Source of the DNA: a virus
Strand: one strand, 5' to 3'
IMG/VR virus record: IMGVR_UViG_3300036861_000610
Coordinates: 83,890-147,889 of that record
DNA length: 64,000 nt
The notes below the pieces were generated by a model. It made no database searches and had not been told where the DNA came from. It saw nothing but the letters and a program-made list of their open reading frames with translations. The position numbers and the translations under genes are program-made. Position 1 is the first letter of the stretch. Each line of letters starts with the position of its first letter. Shown one piece after another: positions 32,331-56,856 of this stretch.

Positions 32331-33596
32331 TCAAACCGTGGCGCCGCTGGCGTTCACAGTACGGCCATTTGCGTCGTTGATGTTTCCGGACCAGGCGATG
32401 TTGGGGTCGACGCACTCGTCCGTCAAGCCGTAGGTGGCCGAGTGCTCGTTGCCTGTCTTGGCTGGATAGAAACGGTTGTTCCGTACGATCCAGTTTTTGC
32501 CGTTTTCGCTGCAGTACAGCGTGTAGGCGCCCGCGGACAAGAAGTTGTTCTCGATCGTCCACCCGCTGTTCTTGTCCGGGTTAGTGATGATCGAGGAGGT
32601 GATTGGGTTGACTCCGGCGAATGTGTTGTGCCGGATGAGCACCCCATTGCCGCCTTGCGACTGGATGTCGTCGCCGTGCCCCTCAGAGGTTGCCTCGCGG
32701 GCCGACAGGTACGAGTCGATGACGGAGGAGCCTTCGCCCATCTCCAGTGCGTTCTCGCAGTCGTGGATGTACACCCGCGAGGCCGCGAAGCGCGCCCAGG
32801 CGATGCCGGTTCCACGACCGTCCTTGCAGTTGACCTCGGAGTCACTGATGGTCAAGCTGCCGTTGCCAGTCATCTCCACGCCGTAGAAGCATGGCCCAAT
32901 GATTCGGCTGTTGCGGATGATGACGTTGGGCGCCGCGACAGTGATGCAACCCATCGCCTTGCCGTCGATCACCGTGTTGGCGGTGGTGATTCGCTGCGGC
33001 CCCGTGTATGGGGTCAGCGTCAGCACCTTCACGCCAGTTGAGCCGCCGGGTCCGGCTGTGGGGTAACCACAGGCCGCGAGCCGGTCGAAGCAGCCGGTCA
33101 GCACCGTTCCTGGCGGCGTGGTGGCTGGGGGTGTAGTCGCCGGGGGTGTGGTGACCGGTGGTGTTGTTGCCGGCGGGGTGGTGACCGGTGGTGTTGTTGC
33201 CGGCGGGGTGGTGACCGGTGGTGTGGTCGTGGGTGGTGCTGTAGTTGTGGGTGGCGGCGTGGTTGCCGGCGGCGTAGTGGGCGTTGCCGTGGGGCTGGTG
33301 GATGGAGTCGGCGAAGCCGTGGGGCTTGCCGACGGGCTGACCGTCGGGCTGGTGGACGGTGCGGCAGGCGGTGGACCGATGCAGGTCAGCGTCACCGTGA
33401 ATGTGCCATCGGGCGCCACGGGGGCACTGACGGGCTTGTCGCATTCGACGGTGGGCTGTGCGCTGAACGTCCGGGCCGCGTACCCAGCGGTGGCTGGACC
33501 GGCAATGAACCATGCGACCGCGAGGGCTGGGATGAGCCAGCGCGGTGTAGTAATTCGCCGATACCAGGGCTCTGGTGCTGCGTGTCTTGGTGCCAT
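32331..33596 (-). CDS. Membrane-anchored/secreted protein with Pro/Thr linker and right-handed beta-helix domain
   Basis: N-terminal hydrophobic segment; TTPP[VA] repeats; beta-helix-like NVIIRNSRI, HGDDIQ, VLIRHNT, TIENN. Confidence 0.7.
   Translation of the reverse strand: MAPRHAAPEPWYRRITTPRWLIPALAVAWFIAGPATAGYAARTFSAQPTVECDKPVSAPVAPDGTFTVTLTCIGPPPAAPSTSPTVSPSASPTASPTPSTSPTATPTTPPATTPPPTTTAPPTTTPPVTTPPATTPPVTTPPATTPPVTTPPATTPPATTPPGTVLTGCFDRLAACGYPTAGPGGSTGVKVLTLTPYTGPQRITTANTVIDGKAMGCITVAAPNVIIRNSRIIGPCFYGVEMTGNGSLTISDSEVNCKDGRGTGIAWARFAASRVYIHDCENALEMGEGSSVIDSYLSAREATSEGHGDDIQSQGGNGVLIRHNTFAGVNPITSSIITNPDKNSGWTIENNFLSAGAYTLYCSENGKNWIVRNNRFYPAKTGNEHSATYGLTDECVDPNIAWSGNINDANGRTVNASGATV
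33110..33350 (-). repeat. Coding tandem repeats (TTPPV/TTPPA; SPTASP)
   Basis: 15-nt periodic repeats encoding the Pro/Thr linker, including a 30-nt near-exact duplication at about 33143-33218. Confidence 0.8.
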
Positions 33597-37735: not shown

Positions 37736-38329
37736 TCAGGCGGCGGCCGGAGCCGGTTCCTCGATGGTGGTGTCGGCGGTGGTGGGGGTCTCCGCCGTCT
37801 CGGCGGCCTTGGCGGCGGCGGCTTCCTGGCGGGCGGCGAGCTTGACCATAACGAGCTTCAGGTGCTCCTCGGTCCAGCCTTCGACCGTTGCGGCGGCGGC
37901 CTCGGCGCGGGTCTGGCCGGCGCGGTTGAGGCCGTCCTTGTTGAACCCGTCCTTGTTGAAGCCGCGGTAGTTGTAGCCCTCCGCGTTGTACCCCTCGCGG
38001 TTGTACCCGCTGCGGTCGTACCCGTCCTTGTTGTAGCCGTGGCGGTTGAAGCCCTGCGTGTTGTAGCCCTCGACGTTGCGGCCGTTGATGTCGAAGCCGG
38101 CGGCATTGTAGTACTTCTCGTAGCCGGTGGGCCGCGTGCCGGTGATGATCTGGGTGAGGGCGTAGTTGACGGTGTCGCAGTGCTGGTTGCTGTGGGCCCA
38201 GCTGATGGTCCGGTCGAACAGCCAGGGCAGCACGGCGGCGAGCTGCTCGTCGGTGGGCTTGGGGGCGTCGTAGGTGTGCTCCGGGTTCGCGTTCATGAAT
38301 GCGAGCAGCGGGTTGGTTTCGGTGGTCAT
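37736..38329 (-). CDS. G[YF][ND]xx pentapeptide-repeat protein, paralog 3
   Basis: About 13 repeats (GYNTQ GFNRH GYNKD GYDRS ...) ending AGQTR...VEGWTEE. Confidence 0.75.
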   Translation of the reverse strand: MTTETNPLLAFMNANPEHTYDAPKPTDEQLAAVLPWLFDRTISWAHSNQHCDTVNYALTQIITGTRPTGYEKYYNAAGFDINGRNVEGYNTQGFNRHGYNKDGYDRSGYNREGYNAEGYNYRGFNKDGFNKDGLNRAGQTRAEAAAATVEGWTEEHLKLVMVKLAARQEAAAAKAAETAETPTTADTTIEEPAPAAA

Positions 38330-38399
38330 GCGCGTGGTCCTTCTCCTGGGGTTGTGGGTTGTTGGGTCGTGGCGCTGCGTGCCGAACCAACGGTCCGAG

Positions 38400-39104
38400 C
38401 TACGCAGCAGCAGCGGCCGTGCCACCGGCCTTGGCCGGCACCGCCTTCTTGACGGTGCCCTTCTTGGCTCCGGCCGCCGTCTTCTTGGGTGGTGTCTGTC
38501 GGGCGGTCTTCTTGGTCGGCGCCTCAGCGACAGCTTCCATGACCTCCGCGGGCGGCTCCTTGGCCGCTTCGAGCTGCGCGAGGTGGGCGGCGATGGCGGC
38601 GGCGAACTCGTCGGACCAGCCGGTCACTTCCTTGGTGACGAGCTGCTCCCGGGTGTTGCCGTAGTAGTCGCGGCCGGCGGCGTTGAAGCCGTACTTGTCG
38701 AAACCGTCGCGGTTGTAGCCGTTCTTGTCGTAGCCGTCACGGTTGAAGCCGTAACGGTCGAGGCCGTCCTTGTTGAAGCCGTTGGGGTCGTAGCCGTCCC
38801 GGTTGAAGCCCTCGATGTTGCGGCCACTCTTGGCGTTGTAGCCGGACGAGTCGGGGAAGCCGTACCGGGGCGCGTTGATGCCGAGGATGTGAGCGAAGGT
38901 GATTTCGGCGTTCTCGCAGAAGTACTTCTCCCTAGCGAATCGCGCCATGCGGTCCATGATGTAGGGCAGTACCGCATTCATCTCGTCGGCGGTGGGGACC
39001 CGCGCCTCGTAGGGTCCGGTGGGGAGTGCGAGTTGCTTCCCCAGCTCCCGGGCCTTTTCCCAGGAGCGCGGGTCCCCGTTTGTGACGTCTGCCAAGCCTG
39101 CCAT
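38400..39104 (-). CDS. G[YF][ND]xx pentapeptide-repeat protein, paralog 2, with Lys/Ala tail
   Basis: GFNRD GYDPN GFNKD ... GNTR...VTGWSDE. Confidence 0.75.
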   Translation of the reverse strand: MAGLADVTNGDPRSWEKARELGKQLALPTGPYEARVPTADEMNAVLPYIMDRMARFAREKYFCENAEITFAHILGINAPRYGFPDSSGYNAKSGRNIEGFNRDGYDPNGFNKDGLDRYGFNRDGYDKNGYNRDGFDKYGFNAAGRDYYGNTREQLVTKEVTGWSDEFAAAIAAHLAQLEAAKEPPAEVMEAVAEAPTKKTARQTPPKKTAAGAKKGTVKKAVPAKAGGTAAAAA

Positions 39105-39142
39105 GCCGTGCCTCCCTGGGTGTCAGGTCGCTTGCGCGACGG

Positions 39143-39583
39143 TCAGGCCGCGTCCGCCAGGGCCGCCAGGCGGTCGGCGAGCAGGTTCAGGACGACGGCG
39201 GCGGTCTCCCCGTCCCAGCCCTCAACCATGGTCTCGATGACCTCCTCGCGGGTCTGGCCGGCGGCGTTGACGCCGTCCTTGTTGAAGCCGTCCTTGTCGA
39301 AGCCCTGGCGGTTGTAGCCGTCGGCGTCGAGGCCGGTCGCCGGGTCGTAGCCGCCGCGCACGCCCTTGGCGTTGCGGCCGTCGGAGTCGACGAAGCCGCC
39401 GACCGGCGTCCGGACGCCGAGGTCGCGCAGCAGCATCTCCAGGCCGACGTCGACGAGGTTGGCGTAGCCGTTGTCGCGACCGAGCCGCACGGCCCGGTCG
39501 ATGAGCCACGGGATGTACGGGGCGGCGTCGCGGGCATTGGGGGCGACGGGACGGTACGGGGCGGTGGGGGCGGTGATGGTCAT
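39143..39583 (-). CDS. G[YF][ND]xx pentapeptide-repeat protein, paralog 1
   Basis: GLDAD GYNRQ GFDKD GFNKD GVNAA GQTR...VEGWDGE. Confidence 0.75.
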   Translation of the reverse strand: MTITAPTAPYRPVAPNARDAAPYIPWLIDRAVRLGRDNGYANLVDVGLEMLLRDLGVRTPVGGFVDSDGRNAKGVRGGYDPATGLDADGYNRQGFDKDGFNKDGVNAAGQTREEVIETMVEGWDGETAAVVLNLLADRLAALADAA

Positions 39584-44581: not shown

Positions 44582-45004
44582 TCAAGGGTTGATCAAAGAA
44601 AGTTGCTGGTCAAGGCACCTCGGCCGCCAGGGCGTGCTCCGCACCTCGATGCCGGCCCGGCGGGCCAGATTCATGCAGTTGATCGTCCCCCGAGACCCGG
44701 GCCCCGGGAACCCGAGACAGACCGCGGCCCCCAGGTTGACCATCTTGGCGTTGCGCTCGGGCCCCAGGATGCGGCCGTTTACCTTGCGGGCTGGGTGAGG
44801 TTCAACCTTGAAGCCGTGGGCGATGGCCCACTGCTCGGACCAGAGATCGGCACCGCCGTACTCACACTGGCCGTGGACCAGAACGAACTCAGCTGGAAGT
44901 TGGCAAGCTACTACAAATTCGTCGAGTTTCTGCCAGACGATGTCCTTGTCGGCCTCGGGCCAGTCCCTCCAGCCGGTGGTCAAAATTCTTACAGGAAGTT
45001 CCAT
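44582..45004 (-). CDS. YspA/DUF2493-like SLOG family protein
   Basis: RBS AGGAAGGGG; RILTTGWRDW, LVHG...GGAD, GPERNAKMV, FPG..SRGT.NC. Confidence 0.8.
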   Translation of the reverse strand: MELPVRILTTGWRDWPEADKDIVWQKLDEFVVACQLPAEFVLVHGQCEYGGADLWSEQWAIAHGFKVEPHPARKVNGRILGPERNAKMVNLGAAVCLGFPGPGSRGTINCMNLARRAGIEVRSTPWRPRCLDQQLSLINP

Positions 45005-45030
45005 CGTCGCACCCCTTCCTGAAATCCCTA

Positions 45031-45090
45031 ACCAGACCATGCCCTGCCGTGCCACGCCGGACCTAACCCGACCGAACCTGACCCCACCGA
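45031..45090 (-). ncRNA. Array A: 12 perfect GGY-NN pentamers (putative guide RNA)
   Basis: + strand accag accat gccct gccgt gccac gccgg accta acccg accga acctg acccc accga; intergenic. Expression as RNA is inferred. Confidence 0.75.
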
Positions 45091-45093
45091 GTT

Positions 45094-45636
45094 TTACTCC
45101 TCGATGCCGTGACGTCGGAGCATCTCGACAAGGCGATCGAGGCGATCATCTTTGACCAAGGCATCCTTCTCCGTGAGAGCCTGGCGCTTGTCCAGCCGAA
45201 CAACCTGACGCTCGGTCTTTAACTGTCGCCGAGTGAGCTGGTTCATCATCTCTTCCTGTCGGGCAAGATGAAGCTCGATGGCGCTAAGCCGGCGACGTTC
45301 GGCCGAGTCGAGGCGAGTCTGGTCCACGAAGGTAACAAGTCGCTTAGCTCGACGCGTGCTTCGCCGAGACTTTGCCTGCTGATTCAGCCCCAGTCGCTCC
45401 TGCTCCCGTGACTCCACCATCCGATAGCCAACCTTGCGAACTCGGTCGAAGGCTCGCAGATGCTCCGTAAGCATGCGACCTGCGGCATAGTAAAAGGCCC
45501 CACGGACAGAGGCCTTCGGAGTACCGGGCAACAGGTTGTGCAGGGTCTCGTCTGAGACCACGTCGTCAATCTGCATGGTCCGCAGGTGGTCAAAGATGAC
45601 CTGCCACTGGGGCCGAGTTTCCTTGCTTTGGAACAT
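45094..45636 (-). CDS. Accessory protein of RAMP locus 1 (winged-helix-like N-terminus, coiled-coil C-terminus)
   Basis: GGAGG RBS; VRKVGYR wing-like motif; lies between arrays B and A. Confidence 0.7.
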   Translation of the reverse strand: MFQSKETRPQWQVIFDHLRTMQIDDVVSDETLHNLLPGTPKASVRGAFYYAAGRMLTEHLRAFDRVRKVGYRMVESREQERLGLNQQAKSRRSTRRAKRLVTFVDQTRLDSAERRRLSAIELHLARQEEMMNQLTRRQLKTERQVVRLDKRQALTEKDALVKDDRLDRLVEMLRRHGIEE

Positions 45637-45650
45637 CTTTTGGCCTCCCC

Positions 45651-45930
45651 ACCTAACCGAACCTAGCCCAACCTAGCCTTGCCCGACCTGACCCAACCGA
45701 ACCAAGCCAAGCCCGAGGCCCCTACCCAGCCCAACCCCACCAAGCCGGGCCTGACCGTACCGAACCACAGAAGCCTTACGGTACCCAACCTCACCGGACC
45801 GAACCGCGCCCAGCCAGGCCATAGAAGCTTGTGCCCCCCGACTCCCTACCAAACCCAGCCATGCCCCACCGGACAATGCCTGACCACGCCTAGCCTGACC
45901 GCACCAAACCACACCATGCGGAACCCAACC
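45651..45930 (-). ncRNA. Array B: about 50 GGY-NN pentamers in 4 blocks of 10-17 units
   Basis: RCC-NN period 5 on +; short linkers including AGAA at 45769 and 45823; begins right after the RAMP stop codon. Confidence 0.75.
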
Positions 45931-45936
45931 AAAAAG

Positions 45937-46527
45937 CTAGACGACTTCTACGGCAGCATCAAAGCGCCCATACTGCTGCCTGTAGTCGCCAAATCCATAA
46001 AGCTTTCCACCGATAACGGCAATATCGGTCAGTTCGTCGGCATCAATGACGCCAGGGTCGAGCACGATGTCAGATTCCATCGACCAGTTCTTGAACATGG
46101 GCCGGCAGCGGTCAATCTTCGCCTGGCCGACACGGGCGGAGCGGAAGTCAACAAACTCACTGGCCCCACTGTCACCCCAGAGCCCTTCAATGGTGCGTGG
46201 GCCTTTGTATAGCAGCGGATGGACAAGTTCGACGATGACGATGCCGCCCTCGATCTTCTTGCCGCGCCGGCCCGATCGAGCAGCTTCGAGAAGGTTCTTG
46301 AAGATCCAGCTGGCCGGGATGTACGGGCCGATGCCTTCCTCGAAGTACAGGCCGCCCTCCCACTCCACGCGCGCAATCTCCAACCGATCCTCGTCAGTGC
46401 GCTTGCTCGACGGCTTGGCCTTGTTGAGGCGCGACATCTCCTTGGCGAAGGGGTCGAGCGGTGAAGCAAGGCGCACGTTGTGCATGAGCAGTGGACGTGT
46501 GCCGGTCGCCGTCAGTCTGACCTTCAT
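45937..46527 (-). CDS. Stand-alone Cas7/RAMP-like protein 1 (196 aa)
   Basis: RAMP-like layout: N-terminal strand with G (LTATGTRPLLMH), PYIP..(I)FK..L, R..VG....R.RP.F..W, C-terminal G-rich loop GFGDYRQQYGRF. RBS GGAGAGAG before ATG 46527. Confidence 0.7.
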   Translation of the reverse strand: MKVRLTATGTRPLLMHNVRLASPLDPFAKEMSRLNKAKPSSKRTDEDRLEIARVEWEGGLYFEEGIGPYIPASWIFKNLLEAARSGRRGKKIEGGIVIVELVHPLLYKGPRTIEGLWGDSGASEFVDFRSARVGQAKIDRCRPMFKNWSMESDIVLDPGVIDADELTDIAVIGGKLYGFGDYRQQYGRFDAAVEVV

Positions 46528-51484: not shown

Positions 51485-51560
51485 TGTTAGACCCCCTATT
51501 TCCAAATTTTCTGGGAGGCGATTTTCAAATCAACGCATCGATGTACTTAGACTCATGTAT

Positions 51561-52781
51561 GCCTGCCAAGCCAAGCCCCACCTAGCCGAACGTTGCCCTG
51601 CCTGCCGCACCGCGCCTACCGGACCGTGCCGAGCCATGCCATCCCCACTATGGCCTCACCGTGCCTGCCCTGCCGTACCAAGCTTCAACAGACCCAGCCC
51701 CGCCTCACCTGCCCCGCCTCACCGTGCCTGACCAAAACACACCTCGCCTGCCGTGCCTTGCCTAGCCCCGCCTTACCTACCTAGCCACACCTTGTCGTTG
51801 TGGACCCCGCCACGCCTGCCCTGCCAAGCCGAACCATTCCACGCCTGACCGTGCCTGCCGGGCCGCACCTTGCCATGCCAAAGGACGCCGAGCCCTGTCA
51901 CGCCGAACCTGCCGTACCCCACCATTCCCCGCCGAGTCCTACCTCGCCTGCCATGCCACGCCGGGCCGTAACCAACCTTGCCGGATCTTGCCCTGCCTGC
52001 CACGTCATGCCATGTCGAACCTCGCCAAGCCCATCCGAAACTCGCCTGCCCCGCCGCACCCAGCCACACCTTGTCGTTGTGGACCCCGCCTTGTCACGCC
52101 GTGCCATGCCTGCCCTACCACACCTAGTCGGACCCGAACTCGCCTAGCCGATACCCACCGCGCCTGCCCCGCCGTACCTTGACTTGCCGCGCCATGCCAG
52201 AACTAGCCCTCGCCTCGCCTGCCACGCCTTGTGAAACCTAACCCCACCAAACCGAGCCGGACCCCGTCTTGTTAAACCCAGCCAAGCCCTACCCCAGCCA
52301 CGCCTGCCACACCATGCCCCGCCGAGCCTTTCCTCACCACACCGCACCGGGGCTGCCGCACCTAACCTCACCGCGCCATGTCTCGCCATGCCTGCCCAGC
52401 CGTAACGCCCCTCACCGTGCCCAACCTCGCCATGCCTGCCGAACCTTGCCTCGACGTACCCAGCCCTACCGGGTCCTACCGCCACCTCACCGCGCCTGCC
52501 GAACCTGGCCATATGCTGCCGTGCCGAACCCCGCCACGCCTGCCTAGCCATACCTCGCCGAGCCCCGCCCCCCCCTAGCCTGCCTAGCCGCGCCTCGTTT
52601 CACCCCACCGAGCCTTGTCACAACGCGCCACACCTGCCTCACCCAACCGCACCATGCCATGCCATGACGAACCACGCCTGCCGCGCCCTACGATGCCTTG
52701 CCACAACCGGTATTTCCCTGCCATGCCTGCCTTGCCTTGCCGCACCATGCCTAGATAGCCGAGCCGCACCTGCCATGTCCT
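51561..52781 (-). ncRNA. Array C: about 1.2 kb of GGY-NN pentamers divided into about 26 units by 4-nt RCCT breaks (sense GGC-A-GGY)
   Basis: RCC-NN period 5 on +; 27 breaks between 51561 and 52768; starts immediately after the stop of the accessory gene. Confidence 0.8.
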
Positions 52782-53219
52782 TCAGGCTTCAATCAGGACA
52801 CCGACCCGAACTTCACTCTCAACGAGATCCCAGAATTCCTCGAAGTTCTCGTAGCGACGCTTCAAGGCCTCCCAGTCACGTCGCATCTCTGCCCTAAGTA
52901 GGCGCATGATCATTGGATCCTGGATAACGACCGCGGCCGGCTCGTAGGCGTACTTCCTCGTCCCATCGTCCTTTTTCACTGCATGGAAGGCGCGAATGGA
53001 GATGGGGTTCCCCGTCTTGGGGCTGGTGTAGTTCACCCGCACGGACCTGATCAGGTCGTGCGCTTGGACACGGCGGTACTTTTCCGCCGCGATGGTGTTG
53101 TTCCACTCGAACCTTGTGTGGAGTGGGTGACGGTTGTCGCGGGCAACATCCACAACAAGCGCGGGAGTCAGTTCCCCGCGCTCGTCGTAGATGGCCTGCA
53201 GGTGATCCCGCAGACTCAT
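52782..53219 (-). CDS. Accessory protein of RAMP locus 2
   Basis: AGGAG RBS; LTPALVVDVAR...HPLHTRFEWNNTIAAEKYR motif. Confidence 0.75.
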   Translation of the reverse strand: MSLRDHLQAIYDERGELTPALVVDVARDNRHPLHTRFEWNNTIAAEKYRRVQAHDLIRSVRVNYTSPKTGNPISIRAFHAVKKDDGTRKYAYEPAAVVIQDPMIMRLLRAEMRRDWEALKRRYENFEEFWDLVESEVRVGVLIEA

Positions 53220-53242: not shown

Positions 53243-53887
53243 CTACTTCTGGACGTCCTTGTTGGTGAGGACCTCGATGTCACGCTCCGGGTCGATCATG
53301 TAGGTGCCCATGTCGCCCTTCTTCTCCGGCCGCCACTCCCCGACGCCGACGCCCATGCCTCCGGCGTCGATGAGGGACAAGACGGAGGCCTGCGTCAGCT
53401 GTGAGGTCACGTAGGTGACCCGCAGCTCGGTCTTCCACTCCGAGAATTCGGGGCGGTAACGCAGGTCGGTGCCGCCGTTGCCGACGCGCACGACGTCTTC
53501 GCGCTTCTTGGGCTCGCCTTCGATGATGGCGAGCTGCTGCCCATCCACGCCGACCTCACCGCGGAAGAACAGCACCTGCCGGAGCAGGGTCATCGTGACT
53601 CCGGCGAAGAACCGTGCGCCGCCGATGGTCGATGCCTTGAAGGCGATAACCGGAAGCCCGTACGCGCCATCGTTGGTGCGGTAGAACGCCGCCTCGTACT
53701 CGGCGTCGGGGTCCTTCGGCTGCTTGGGGGTCTTGCGCCCCTGCATCGCGTCGAGCATCTGCTTCTTCGCCTTCTCGGAGAAGCGGTGGATGATCAGCGG
53801 CGACGTCCCCACGATGGGGACGATGAGCGTCTCCGCGTCGATGCGAGGGATCTCGATGATGTTGGTTGTCTTTGCTGCCGTTGCCAT
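53243..53887 (-). CDS. Stand-alone Cas7/RAMP-like protein 2 (214 aa)
   Basis: IVGTSPLIIH, YGLPVIAFK, VRVG...DLRYRPEFSEW, G-rich loop AGGMGVGVGEWRPEKKGDMGTY; GGAGGAG RBS; strong codon bias. Confidence 0.75.
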   Translation of the reverse strand: MATAAKTTNIIEIPRIDAETLIVPIVGTSPLIIHRFSEKAKKQMLDAMQGRKTPKQPKDPDAEYEAAFYRTNDGAYGLPVIAFKASTIGGARFFAGVTMTLLRQVLFFRGEVGVDGQQLAIIEGEPKKREDVVRVGNGGTDLRYRPEFSEWKTELRVTYVTSQLTQASVLSLIDAGGMGVGVGEWRPEKKGDMGTYMIDPERDIEVLTNKDVQK

Positions 53888-53924
53888 GGGTTACTCCTCC
53901 AGGAGTGTCTACTTAGGACGTTTC

Positions 53925-54857
53925 CCATGCCGTGCCGCACCATGCCTTCCTCTCCGAGGAGAGGCTGTACCTTTCCTGACTCGCCTGCCTAGACGTGCCA
54001 AGCCTTCCCGGGCCGGGTCTCACCGAGCCAAGCCACACCTCACCTGCCCCACCCCGCCTAGCCTGCCAAACCGCGCCGTGCCACGACGAACCACGCCTGC
54101 CAAGCCATGCCCTGCCTTCACGTACCCCGCCAAACCGAGCCTGCCCTGCCGGACCAAACCCCAACTCCCCGAACCTGGCCACGCCACGCCCCGCGATGCC
54201 TGCCGAACCCCGCCTTACCCGAAAGAGCCGGGACTTGCCACGCCTGCCCTGCCTCGCCGGACGGTGCCTTACCCAAACGAAACGTGCCGTGCCGCGCCTG
54301 CCTTGCCCTACCATTGCTTGCCGCACCGGGCCTAGCCACAACACACCTCACCTGCCGTACCGAACCGCACCGGATCGAGCCGGGCCCTACCTGCCATGCC
54401 TCTCCTAGCCACACCCCGCCTCGCCTGCCATGCCCGACCCAGCCCCTCCTAACCCCTCGGCGCCGTGCCCCACCTGCCCTACCGCTCCGGACCATTACAC
54501 GCCTGACCGTGCCTAGCCACATCCCGCCTGCCTCACCACATCAAGCAAGCCTCGCCACACCTCGCCCTGCCTGCCATGCCACATCGCGCCAAGCCCAGCC
54601 TTACCATTCCTGCCGGACCGAGCCTTGCCAAGCCCCACCTGACCCCTCCTGACCAGACCGTGCCTGCCGGGCCGCACCCCGCCTCGTCCAGCCTCACCTC
54701 ACCTGCCATGTCGTGCCGCATCACGCCACGCCTCAACTCGCCCCACCTGCCATGCCGAGCCGTGCCATTACTAACCACTCCGAGCCCTACCTCACCTGCC
54801 CAGCCCTGCCTAGCCACATGAAGCCGCGCCCTGTGAAGCCCAACCCCACCACGCCTA
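53925..54857 (-). ncRNA. Array D: about 0.9 kb of GGY-NN pentamers with 19 GGC-A-GGY breaks
   Basis: Breaks at 53983, 54042, 54061, 54095, 54139, 54198, 54242, 54296, 54350, 54389, 54423, 54472, 54526, 54569, 54608, 54662, 54701, 54745, 54794. Confidence 0.8.
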
Positions 54858-56856
54858 TTGCCGAGTGTCGATGCTGAACGAGAAGCGGCCAAGACTGATC
54901 ATGAAGGTGAACATGTCGCCGCCCCAGCTGATCCAGACCCAGCCGTTGTCACTTTTGTAGGCGGGTCCCTGCTCGGGACTGCGAGTGAGGATGCGGCGGG
55001 GGATGAAGTTTTTCATGCGGCGGCCTGGTCCTGGACGGTCTGCCACTGGGCCAGCTGCTGCTCGTGCAGCACCTTCCATAGTGGTTCCTCGCCGGCCGTC
55101 CACACCAGGTGTCGGGGTACCTCGTGGGCGCTGTGAATGGCTTGAATGTGGAAGCCGCCGAACTCCCGGCAGACGGGGCACGGTGATGGCTGCGCGGTCA
55201 TGTCTCCTCCTTTGGTTCGCCTTTGCGGGCGATGATTGCCCTGATTTCCTGACAGGAGCGCTTCCACTTCCGAGCCAGACTCAGGCGCAGGGCGCCGATT
55301 CCGTAGTCGTGGACGAATTCGCCGTGCCGCCTCGCCCGGTACTCCAGGTAGATCCTCTTCTCGGGCGTCTGCCCCATGTCCGTACCCTTCTAGTTTTCTG
55401 GCTCTCCAACGGCCTCGATCAGGGTGCCGAGGGCAGCGTCAATGCGCAGGAGCTTGGCTTTCTGGTCGGCGACCTTGACCCGCAGTGCCCGGCTCTCTTC
55501 TCTGATGCGACGCAGCTCCGCCGCCTGGTCGAGGCTGCCTTGGGTCTGGCGAACGATGAGGGATTCGCCCAACTCCTGAATCAAAGTCCTCAGGGCATCG
55601 GCAGTGCTGTCGACCCATTTTCCGCGGAAAACCCTAACTCCTGAAGCTGTTTTAGTGACAAGGGCGGCGCGGACGAGGGTGCCGTCGGTGCCGTTGCCCA
55701 CCTCGTAGCGCAGTTCGATGGTCTCGTCGTTCACCTCGCGTTGCATATCCTCTCCTTCGCCGTTCATTGCTCGACGCATTGCTTCCACTTCTTCGGGAGG
55801 AAGTCGATGAACAATCAGCGGCTTGGTGCCGATGAGGATAAGCGGATCGTCTGGGCCCTTACTCACGCTTGACCCACCTTCTGGGTGCACAGGTGCTTGG
55901 TGGAGGCCTCAACGAGGTCAGCGACGCTCATGCCTGGAGTAATGGTCATGACGTCGCAGACGGGCTCATCGTCGCCGCGGTCGTGTACCAGGTAGGCGTG
56001 CCGGGAGGTGAACACGTACTCGTCGAGGCCTTCCAGGTCGATGTGGTGGGGGCCCAGGTCGGCTTCGTCGGCGATGAAGAAGTCGTCGAGGAACCGACGT
56101 TCCTCTTCGGCGACTTCGTGCTCGAATTCGTCGGGCCAATAGTCGGCCATCTCGGCTTCGGTGCCGCCGGCCTCGACTGCCTTGGTTTCCTGCTTACCGG
56201 TCATGGGGGCTCCAGTGATGGGGGTCGAGGCGGCAGCCAGTGACGCAAACGATTGATCGAGTCTGATGAGACGTTTGATGTCGTCCATGCGGTAGAAGCC
56301 TTTGATGCCGGCGCAGAGGAACACGATGAACGGCAGCATCCACCAGCCGTAGTCGTCGATGTACCGGACGAAGCCGAAGAAGAGCGCGAAGAAGAAGCTC
56401 ATGCCCGTCGCGATGATGCTGCAGTTCTTCCACTCCTCGCGCACAGGGATGGCGCTGGCCAAAAGAAAGGCGGCCAGCCCCAGCACAGTGGCAAGGATAA
56501 GGAGGACGGTGCGGGTCAGCAGGATGCCCATGTCACTTCTTTCCCTTGTCGTCGTCTTTGATGATGGGCGGGTGCCAGAGCCCTGACGTCAGCGGGTCGG
56601 GGCCGACGTACAGCCGGCAGGCGCAAGCGCCGATCTTGTCGTCGTACTTGTTGAAGACGTCGACCTTGCACTTGTAGCCGCCGTTCTCGTGGGCGCCATA
56701 TACGTGGCCACACAGGCATTTCGGCGGAGGGGTTGGAGGGGCTGGTCGCTTAATGTCCCGGGTGTAGATGCGCCCCAGGAGATAGCCCAAAAGCGCCGAG
56801 AAGATCGAGAACACAGCCTGCATTAAGCCAATGGCAATGACGATGCCGACATTCAT
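54855..56856 (-). CDS. Small hypothetical and membrane genes (54855-55016, 55013-55201, 55390-~55866, 55863-56531, 56533-56856)
   Basis: Overlap packing and RBSs; transmembrane segments in the last two. Confidence 0.5.

Follow-up and report, generated by a model that had tools for sequence, protein, structure and literature searches.

VIPR systems and staggered arrays

VIPR systems, which were described in 2026 and are related to CRISPR, silence DNA by means of guides in which GGY triplets alternate with NN dinucleotides and which are read with a one-base skip, as set out in the accessible parts of the preprint (10.64898/2026.04.26.720920). In the type II system of Escherichia phage SUSP1 (PDB 36pp), each repeat is bound by one Vipr subunit, with the protein holding GGY while NN pairs with DNA (10.64898/2026.04.26.720927), and the guides comprise 9-16 repeats, each guide ending in a structured pseudoknot tail (10.64898/2026.04.26.720920, 10.64898/2026.04.26.720927). 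Those parts of the first preprint also list "staggered arrays with overlapping vrRNAs", and the legend of its fig. S18 describes vrRNAs from 1-nt overlapping positions, where the end of one is the start of the next (10.64898/2026.04.26.720920). Small-RNA sequencing confirmed ribozyme-spaced and single guides but not staggered arrays, according to the same portions of the text (10.64898/2026.04.26.720920). The staggered-array legend, as available, is silent on break sequence, on how lengths are distributed and on targets (10.64898/2026.04.26.720920), and our literature search returned no further work on staggered vrRNA arrays beyond this partly accessible preprint.

Organization of the locus

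We analyzed a window of 64,000 nucleotides from the virus record of a soil phage (147,889 bases, ~148 kb), whose capsid protein is closest to those of actinobacteriophages. A staggered vrRNA array, array D (53986..54855, minus strand), sits immediately 5' of a vipr gene (53243..53887, minus strand), and an accessory, vap-like gene (52782..53219, minus strand; 145 aa; phrog_15946) and a second staggered array, array C (51560..52780, minus strand), come next. The 214-aa vipr product (phrog_4652) is RAMP/Cas7-like and predicted to bind guides. It matched SUSP1 Vipr with an E value of 4.6e-5 by sequence and 1.1e-5 with a profile, and its structure model (pLDDT 82) matched Csm3/Cas7 chains. A gene of similar size to the accessory gene follows vipr in close relatives, and homologues occur in ~100 of the fetched loci; the single-sequence predicted fold of the accessory (Vap) protein was uninformative. 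Array C contains ~26 GGCA/GGTA breaks, and a few of its units carry one-base insertions or deletions.

The window also encodes a second, SUSP1-like Vipr (45937..46527, minus strand; E 5.8e-23 to PDB 36pp), which is much closer to SUSP1 than is the 214-aa Vipr. The arrays of this second gene (~45620-45950 and 45000-45120) have no regular GGCA breaks and serve as an internal control. Since regular GGCA steps are absent there, we conclude that the punctuation is specific to one Vipr lineage and is no by-product of the repeats.

At its vipr-proximal side, array D has a conserved end (53925..53975, minus strand), consisting of a hairpin (~53947-53962) and a tract of 3-4 pentamers just before the vipr ribosome-binding site, which is a candidate 3' tail or vipr leader. 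The hairpin is kept in five related sequences (two of them identical there), with several two-sided stem changes. Folding of the array D end gave no stable structure above shuffles. No sigma-70 promoter was found at the locus.

Several other features are worth recording. A stand-alone staggered GGY-NN array of ~6 units with GGCA breaks lies outside the window, at C1:61358-61640 (plus strand) of the genome, distant from both vipr genes, and it probably uses Vipr in trans. Within the window, an ORF upstream of array D (55612-55836, minus strand) weakly matches the N-terminal part of Vipr (E 6.7e-5, 32% over 75 aa). Two pairs of units in arrays C and D have five NN in common (54475-54528 with ~51817-51855, and ~52047-52110 with 51778-51816), which suggests either duplication or two guides for one site. 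The 15/30-nt coding tandem repeats at 33112-33265 and 37925-39304, within minus-strand ORFs, are unrelated to the arrays.

Phasing of the breaks in array D

Array D is a minus-strand tract of GGY-NN pentamers that, in a phase-aware parse, is interrupted by 19 four-base GGCA steps. Its first unit comprises 11 pentamers; the 18 units after it are bounded by GGCA and each hold 3-11 GGY-NN repeats. The array reaches ~54855, 11 pentamers past the end given in an earlier note on this DNA. The step is followed by GGY in 18 of 19 instances and by GGA in the other (54614). An exact search for GGY-A-GGY returned spacings of 59, 19, 34, 44, 59, 44, 54, 54, 39, 34, 49, 54, 43, 93, 39, 44 and 49 nt; once the 93-nt spacing is divided into 39 and 54 nt at the GGC-A-GGA step at 54614, all 18 values listed in the earlier note are reproduced. 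That note had described the break as GGC-A-GGY and all but one of the spacings as 4+5n. The spacing rule held (17 of 18), the exception being a 43-nt unit (54529-54571) in which one base is missing internally; the description of the break held in that every step is GGCA, although strictly the step at 54614 does not precede GGY.

We confirmed that these evenly phased one-base breaks are real. In the strict search, 15 of 17 spacings equal 4+5n (p ~3e-9 under random phase), and the four-base steps between GGY triplets are GGCA in 18 of 18 cases, with the single base never C, G or T. On the minus strand, arrays C and D contain ~20 copies of GGYAGGY per kb, compared to 0.36 per kb elsewhere. A source-like contig has zero letter differences across 53297-55144, and this identity is not independent support. 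The lengths given in the earlier note, mostly 6-11 dinucleotides per presumed guide, also agree with the units, 17 of 18 of which hold 6-11 NN, with a full range of 3-11.

Phase is kept through degenerate pentamers in array D, as had been proposed, and these pentamers do tend to lie mid-unit: eight fall within the two outermost positions at either unit end, while 14.2 would be expected (p=0.01). In the close clade, degenerate pentamers make up 0 of 103 at unit position 1 and 25-30% at positions 3-6.

Comparative evidence on the breaks

We collected ~120 related loci, which are not independent samples, and counted well-flanked register slips over 102 of them using a parser that favoured no tetramer. 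GGCA accounted for 667 of ~770 such slips. The lengths of the units were restricted as well: 668 of 820 clean units held 7-12 repeats, where random breaks would give 184, and those of five repeats or fewer numbered 76 against 390 expected, with a sharp floor at seven repeats.

We also decoded units to codon sets and searched each against its own locus, which at the top threshold yielded four hits where 0.2 were expected. In each of five relatives, one unit can be decoded, in codon phase, to the phage's own vap, vipr or a neighbouring gene, and the own copies have switched Leu/Ser/Arg codons. In the best case, a 14-repeat unit matched 13 residues of the phage's own vap, which has alternative Leu, Ser and Arg codons where pairing breaks, as expected for a guide aimed at a rival's copy. 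Across these five units, which belong to relatives rather than to array D, 49 of 57 codons match within the unit, a score that is inflated because the units were picked for matching. The fair test is the sequence beyond the breaks, where only 7 of 55 codons match if the A is dropped and 3 of 65 if A-G is read as NN.

These results bear directly on whether the single A (or the overlapping GGCAG) could instead be read within one continuous guide, such that targets span the breaks. Neighbouring units do often stay together in related arrays (~37% of more distant pairs), although common descent accounts for this. Given that matches end at the breaks under both models tested, and that an invariant A holds no target information, we regard such continuous reading as very improbable.

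The gain and loss of units offers a different reading of the GGCA steps. Two related arrays differ by indels the size of whole units (39, 39, 54, 59 and 59 nt, in a noisy alignment). Elsewhere, a 14-nt two-repeat unit is expanded at L001:7492-7631 and bare GGCA steps are expanded at L004:7981-7992; both look like products of slippage. Whole-unit-sized indels and local GGCA runs in relatives are what one would see if the steps were recombination or insertion joints with no role in the RNA. We consider this quite unlikely as a full account, since the seven-repeat floor, together with a scaffold that is cleaner towards unit ends, speaks for selection on an RNA-protein unit; joints of this kind are also compatible with, rather than exclusive of, the guide-boundary model.

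Taken together, slip sequence, unit lengths, decoded units and whole-unit-sized indels, along with agreement with the staggered model as described in the accessible parts of the preprint, support the earlier proposal that the breaks mark guide boundaries. On this comparative basis, the breaks very probably bound independent guides.

Some relatives offer further observations. In eight sister-group loci (L016, L021, L051, L089, L090, L092, L094 and L109), a unit and a gapped site just upstream of vipr have five NN in common while the skipped bases vary between loci, although the loci share ancestry and the correspondence is limited to five repeats. The site is promoter-like and lies ~70-100 nt upstream of vipr, while the unit is conserved and late in the array; possible explanations are self-regulation or the targeting of sister systems. 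The array D unit at 54392-54425 has four of the gapped-site NN, and its own genome has no such site upstream of vipr. Staggered arrays can be long, reaching 3.5-4 kb with ~70 GGCA breaks (L096:10666-14690 and L119:10646-14175). They also occur, with Vipr of the same clade, in phages that have been cultured, namely Pipp and ODay of Gordonia and Saal of Mycobacterium (L006:3611-3845, L007:3625-3790 and L008:2612-2850); the Pipp annotation lists part of the array as a hypothetical protein.

Selection on register and on sequence

The earlier note had further suggested that selection acts on register rather than on exact sequence. We compared 50 homologous unit pairs, chosen on overall identity, with random pairs, and found that N positions differ at 8-9% in homologous pairs versus 73-75% in random pairs, while the Y position differs at 21% versus 44%. 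Because NN changes more slowly than Y, we conclude that NN is under purifying selection. Consistent with this pattern, close-relative counterparts of the units at 54200, 54141 and 54664 keep the NN core with an altered scaffold. The suggestion is therefore only partly right: it applies to the GGY scaffold within units, which is free to vary if phase is kept, but not to the NN, which are conserved, or to the break, which is fixed.

The same constraint bears on the idea that the array D tract codes for protein or is a neutral repeat of low complexity. ORFs of 80-200 aa, overlapping one another, do run across the tract, and gene callers mark such ORFs in relatives. However, a period of five with a slip of -1 every 34-59 nt misfits codon structure, such tracts adjoin Vipr homologues in ~100 loci, and NN is more constrained than Y, so that we find this idea hardly credible.

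Target searches

The rule by which NN pairs with its target at one-nucleotide skips is backed by the hits in relatives and by NN conservation, whereas units of arrays C and D gave no credible target in any search. Array D units had no target in their own genome or the first loci with skips of 0-2, and those starting at 54200, 54528 and 54141 had no credible hit in viral contigs. An integrase motif was considered as target of the 54528 unit and rejected, the hits being unrelated and out of frame. The 54664 unit gave eight scattered hits in genome contigs, none of them actinomycete. Across 379 fetched loci, scores of the window's units were raised only where the pattern had itself served to fetch the loci. 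More broadly, DNA-level matches of 594 units to a local database were barely above shuffles, and there was no excess over shuffles for units against all fetched vipr and vap genes at the DNA level or, in general, against the sequence preceding their own vipr.

Two partial matches came from this work. The seven-NN core of the 54664 unit, which two relatives also carry (54611-54664; L001:5610; L004:6212), fits the tRNA/tmRNA T-arm, a common integration site, and 50 of 120 hits were tRNAs; no full-length match was found, as the three 5' NN never fit, and the T-arm remains a lead. A unit common to three relatives hit a motif, on its core only, that we take to belong to T7-like RNA polymerase.

A model for guide separation

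In our view, the best overall explanation is that array D consists of tail-less guides that are separated at GGCA and that silence separately, to which we assign a probability of about 0.8. Array D would be transcribed as one long precursor in the same direction as vipr. By analogy with SUSP1, one Vipr subunit would then occupy each GGY-NN repeat and display NN to DNA, skipping one base after every two that are read. Because the GGY after a GGCA step comes a base too soon, the filament would be unable to continue in register, and the step would close one guide and open the next. Some 19 tail-less guides, mostly of 7-11 repeats, would thereby be packed into 870 nt, with each unit guiding, independently of the others, the silencing of a site that belongs to a rival phage or mobile element. 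Counting against this model, seven-repeat units specify just 14 bases and have no structured 3' tail of the SUSP1 type.

How the guides would be separated is a further question. It seems reasonably likely to us that the RNA is physically cut at GGCA or immediately beside it, with Vipr, Vap or a host RNase attacking the exposed C-A step; that this step is fixed suggests that the site is recognised or labile. Alternatively, the breaks might be filament boundaries on an RNA that stays uncut, with one long molecule carrying many Vipr segments, each with its own target. This arrangement fits all of the comparative evidence as well as cleavage does, and it suits units without tails in a locus with no ribozyme, no nuclease gene and no Rfam family at E<=1; between array D guides we found no hammerhead ribozymes and no room for them. 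We think it possible but doubtful, because a mere register slip could do without a fixed sequence, whereas nearly every step reads GGCA, and because processed guides are depicted in the accessible parts of the preprint (10.64898/2026.04.26.720920). The near-invariance of GGCA instead suggests recognition by an enzyme or binding pocket.

Returning to separation by cleavage, a more tentative version, which we judge rather unlikely, is that the Vipr filament itself reads the GGCA slip as a signal for processing; one ancestral RAMP would then be enough for both the maturation and the use of its guides. If so, no Cas6, tail or ribozyme would be needed, and a multiplex array could be written by inserting a four-base step. 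More generally, if a four-base step suffices to delimit guides, it would allow very compact multiplexing of RNA-guided silencing and could serve to model how guides matured before Cas6. With Pipp and ODay in Gordonia and Saal in Mycobacterium smegmatis, guide separation can be tested in laboratory strains.

Comparison with known systems

The locus has several of the features by which VIPR is recognized: a Vipr that is homologous to RAMP proteins, has a thumb and a G-loop and is encoded outside any CRISPR locus, non-coding flanking tracts that alternate GGY and variable NN, and a minimal viral complement of vipr and an accessory gene. Like class 1 CRISPR systems with Cas7/Csm3 backbones, it combines a RAMP fold with many guides per precursor. 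Unlike them, array D has no direct repeats or spacers, cas1 and cas6 are not seen alongside, and the code is non-contiguous. With the type II VIPR of SUSP1 it shares a homologous protein, in which R138, D177, W178 and R179 of the SUSP1 thumb and G-loop align with R145, E184, W185 and R186, and the same repeat grammar. However, array D units are shorter than SUSP1 guides and abut one another, and in place of a structured 3' tail per guide there is one hairpin only, at the array end. Interspersed ribozymes, which mark another described array type, are likewise absent from array D.

The closest likeness is to the staggered VIPR arrays, which, as far as the accessible parts of the preprint describe them, have the same GGY/NN pentamers, a vipr with one accessory gene, carriage by phage and a 1-nt offset between guides. 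In array D this offset arises as GGCAG shares its last G with the next GGY, and 17 of 18 spacings are 5n-1; pentamers overlapping by 1 nt yield 5n-1, which is the same series as the 4+5n of the earlier note. Since the staggered layout is already published, array D illustrates a known system well and does not constitute a new one. We conclude that it is a clear member of this described array type in a phage VIPR system, and that its breaks are most likely guide-to-guide boundaries; to the known layout, the present analysis adds comparative backing for the boundary model, and it points to cultured phages that would allow processing to be tested.
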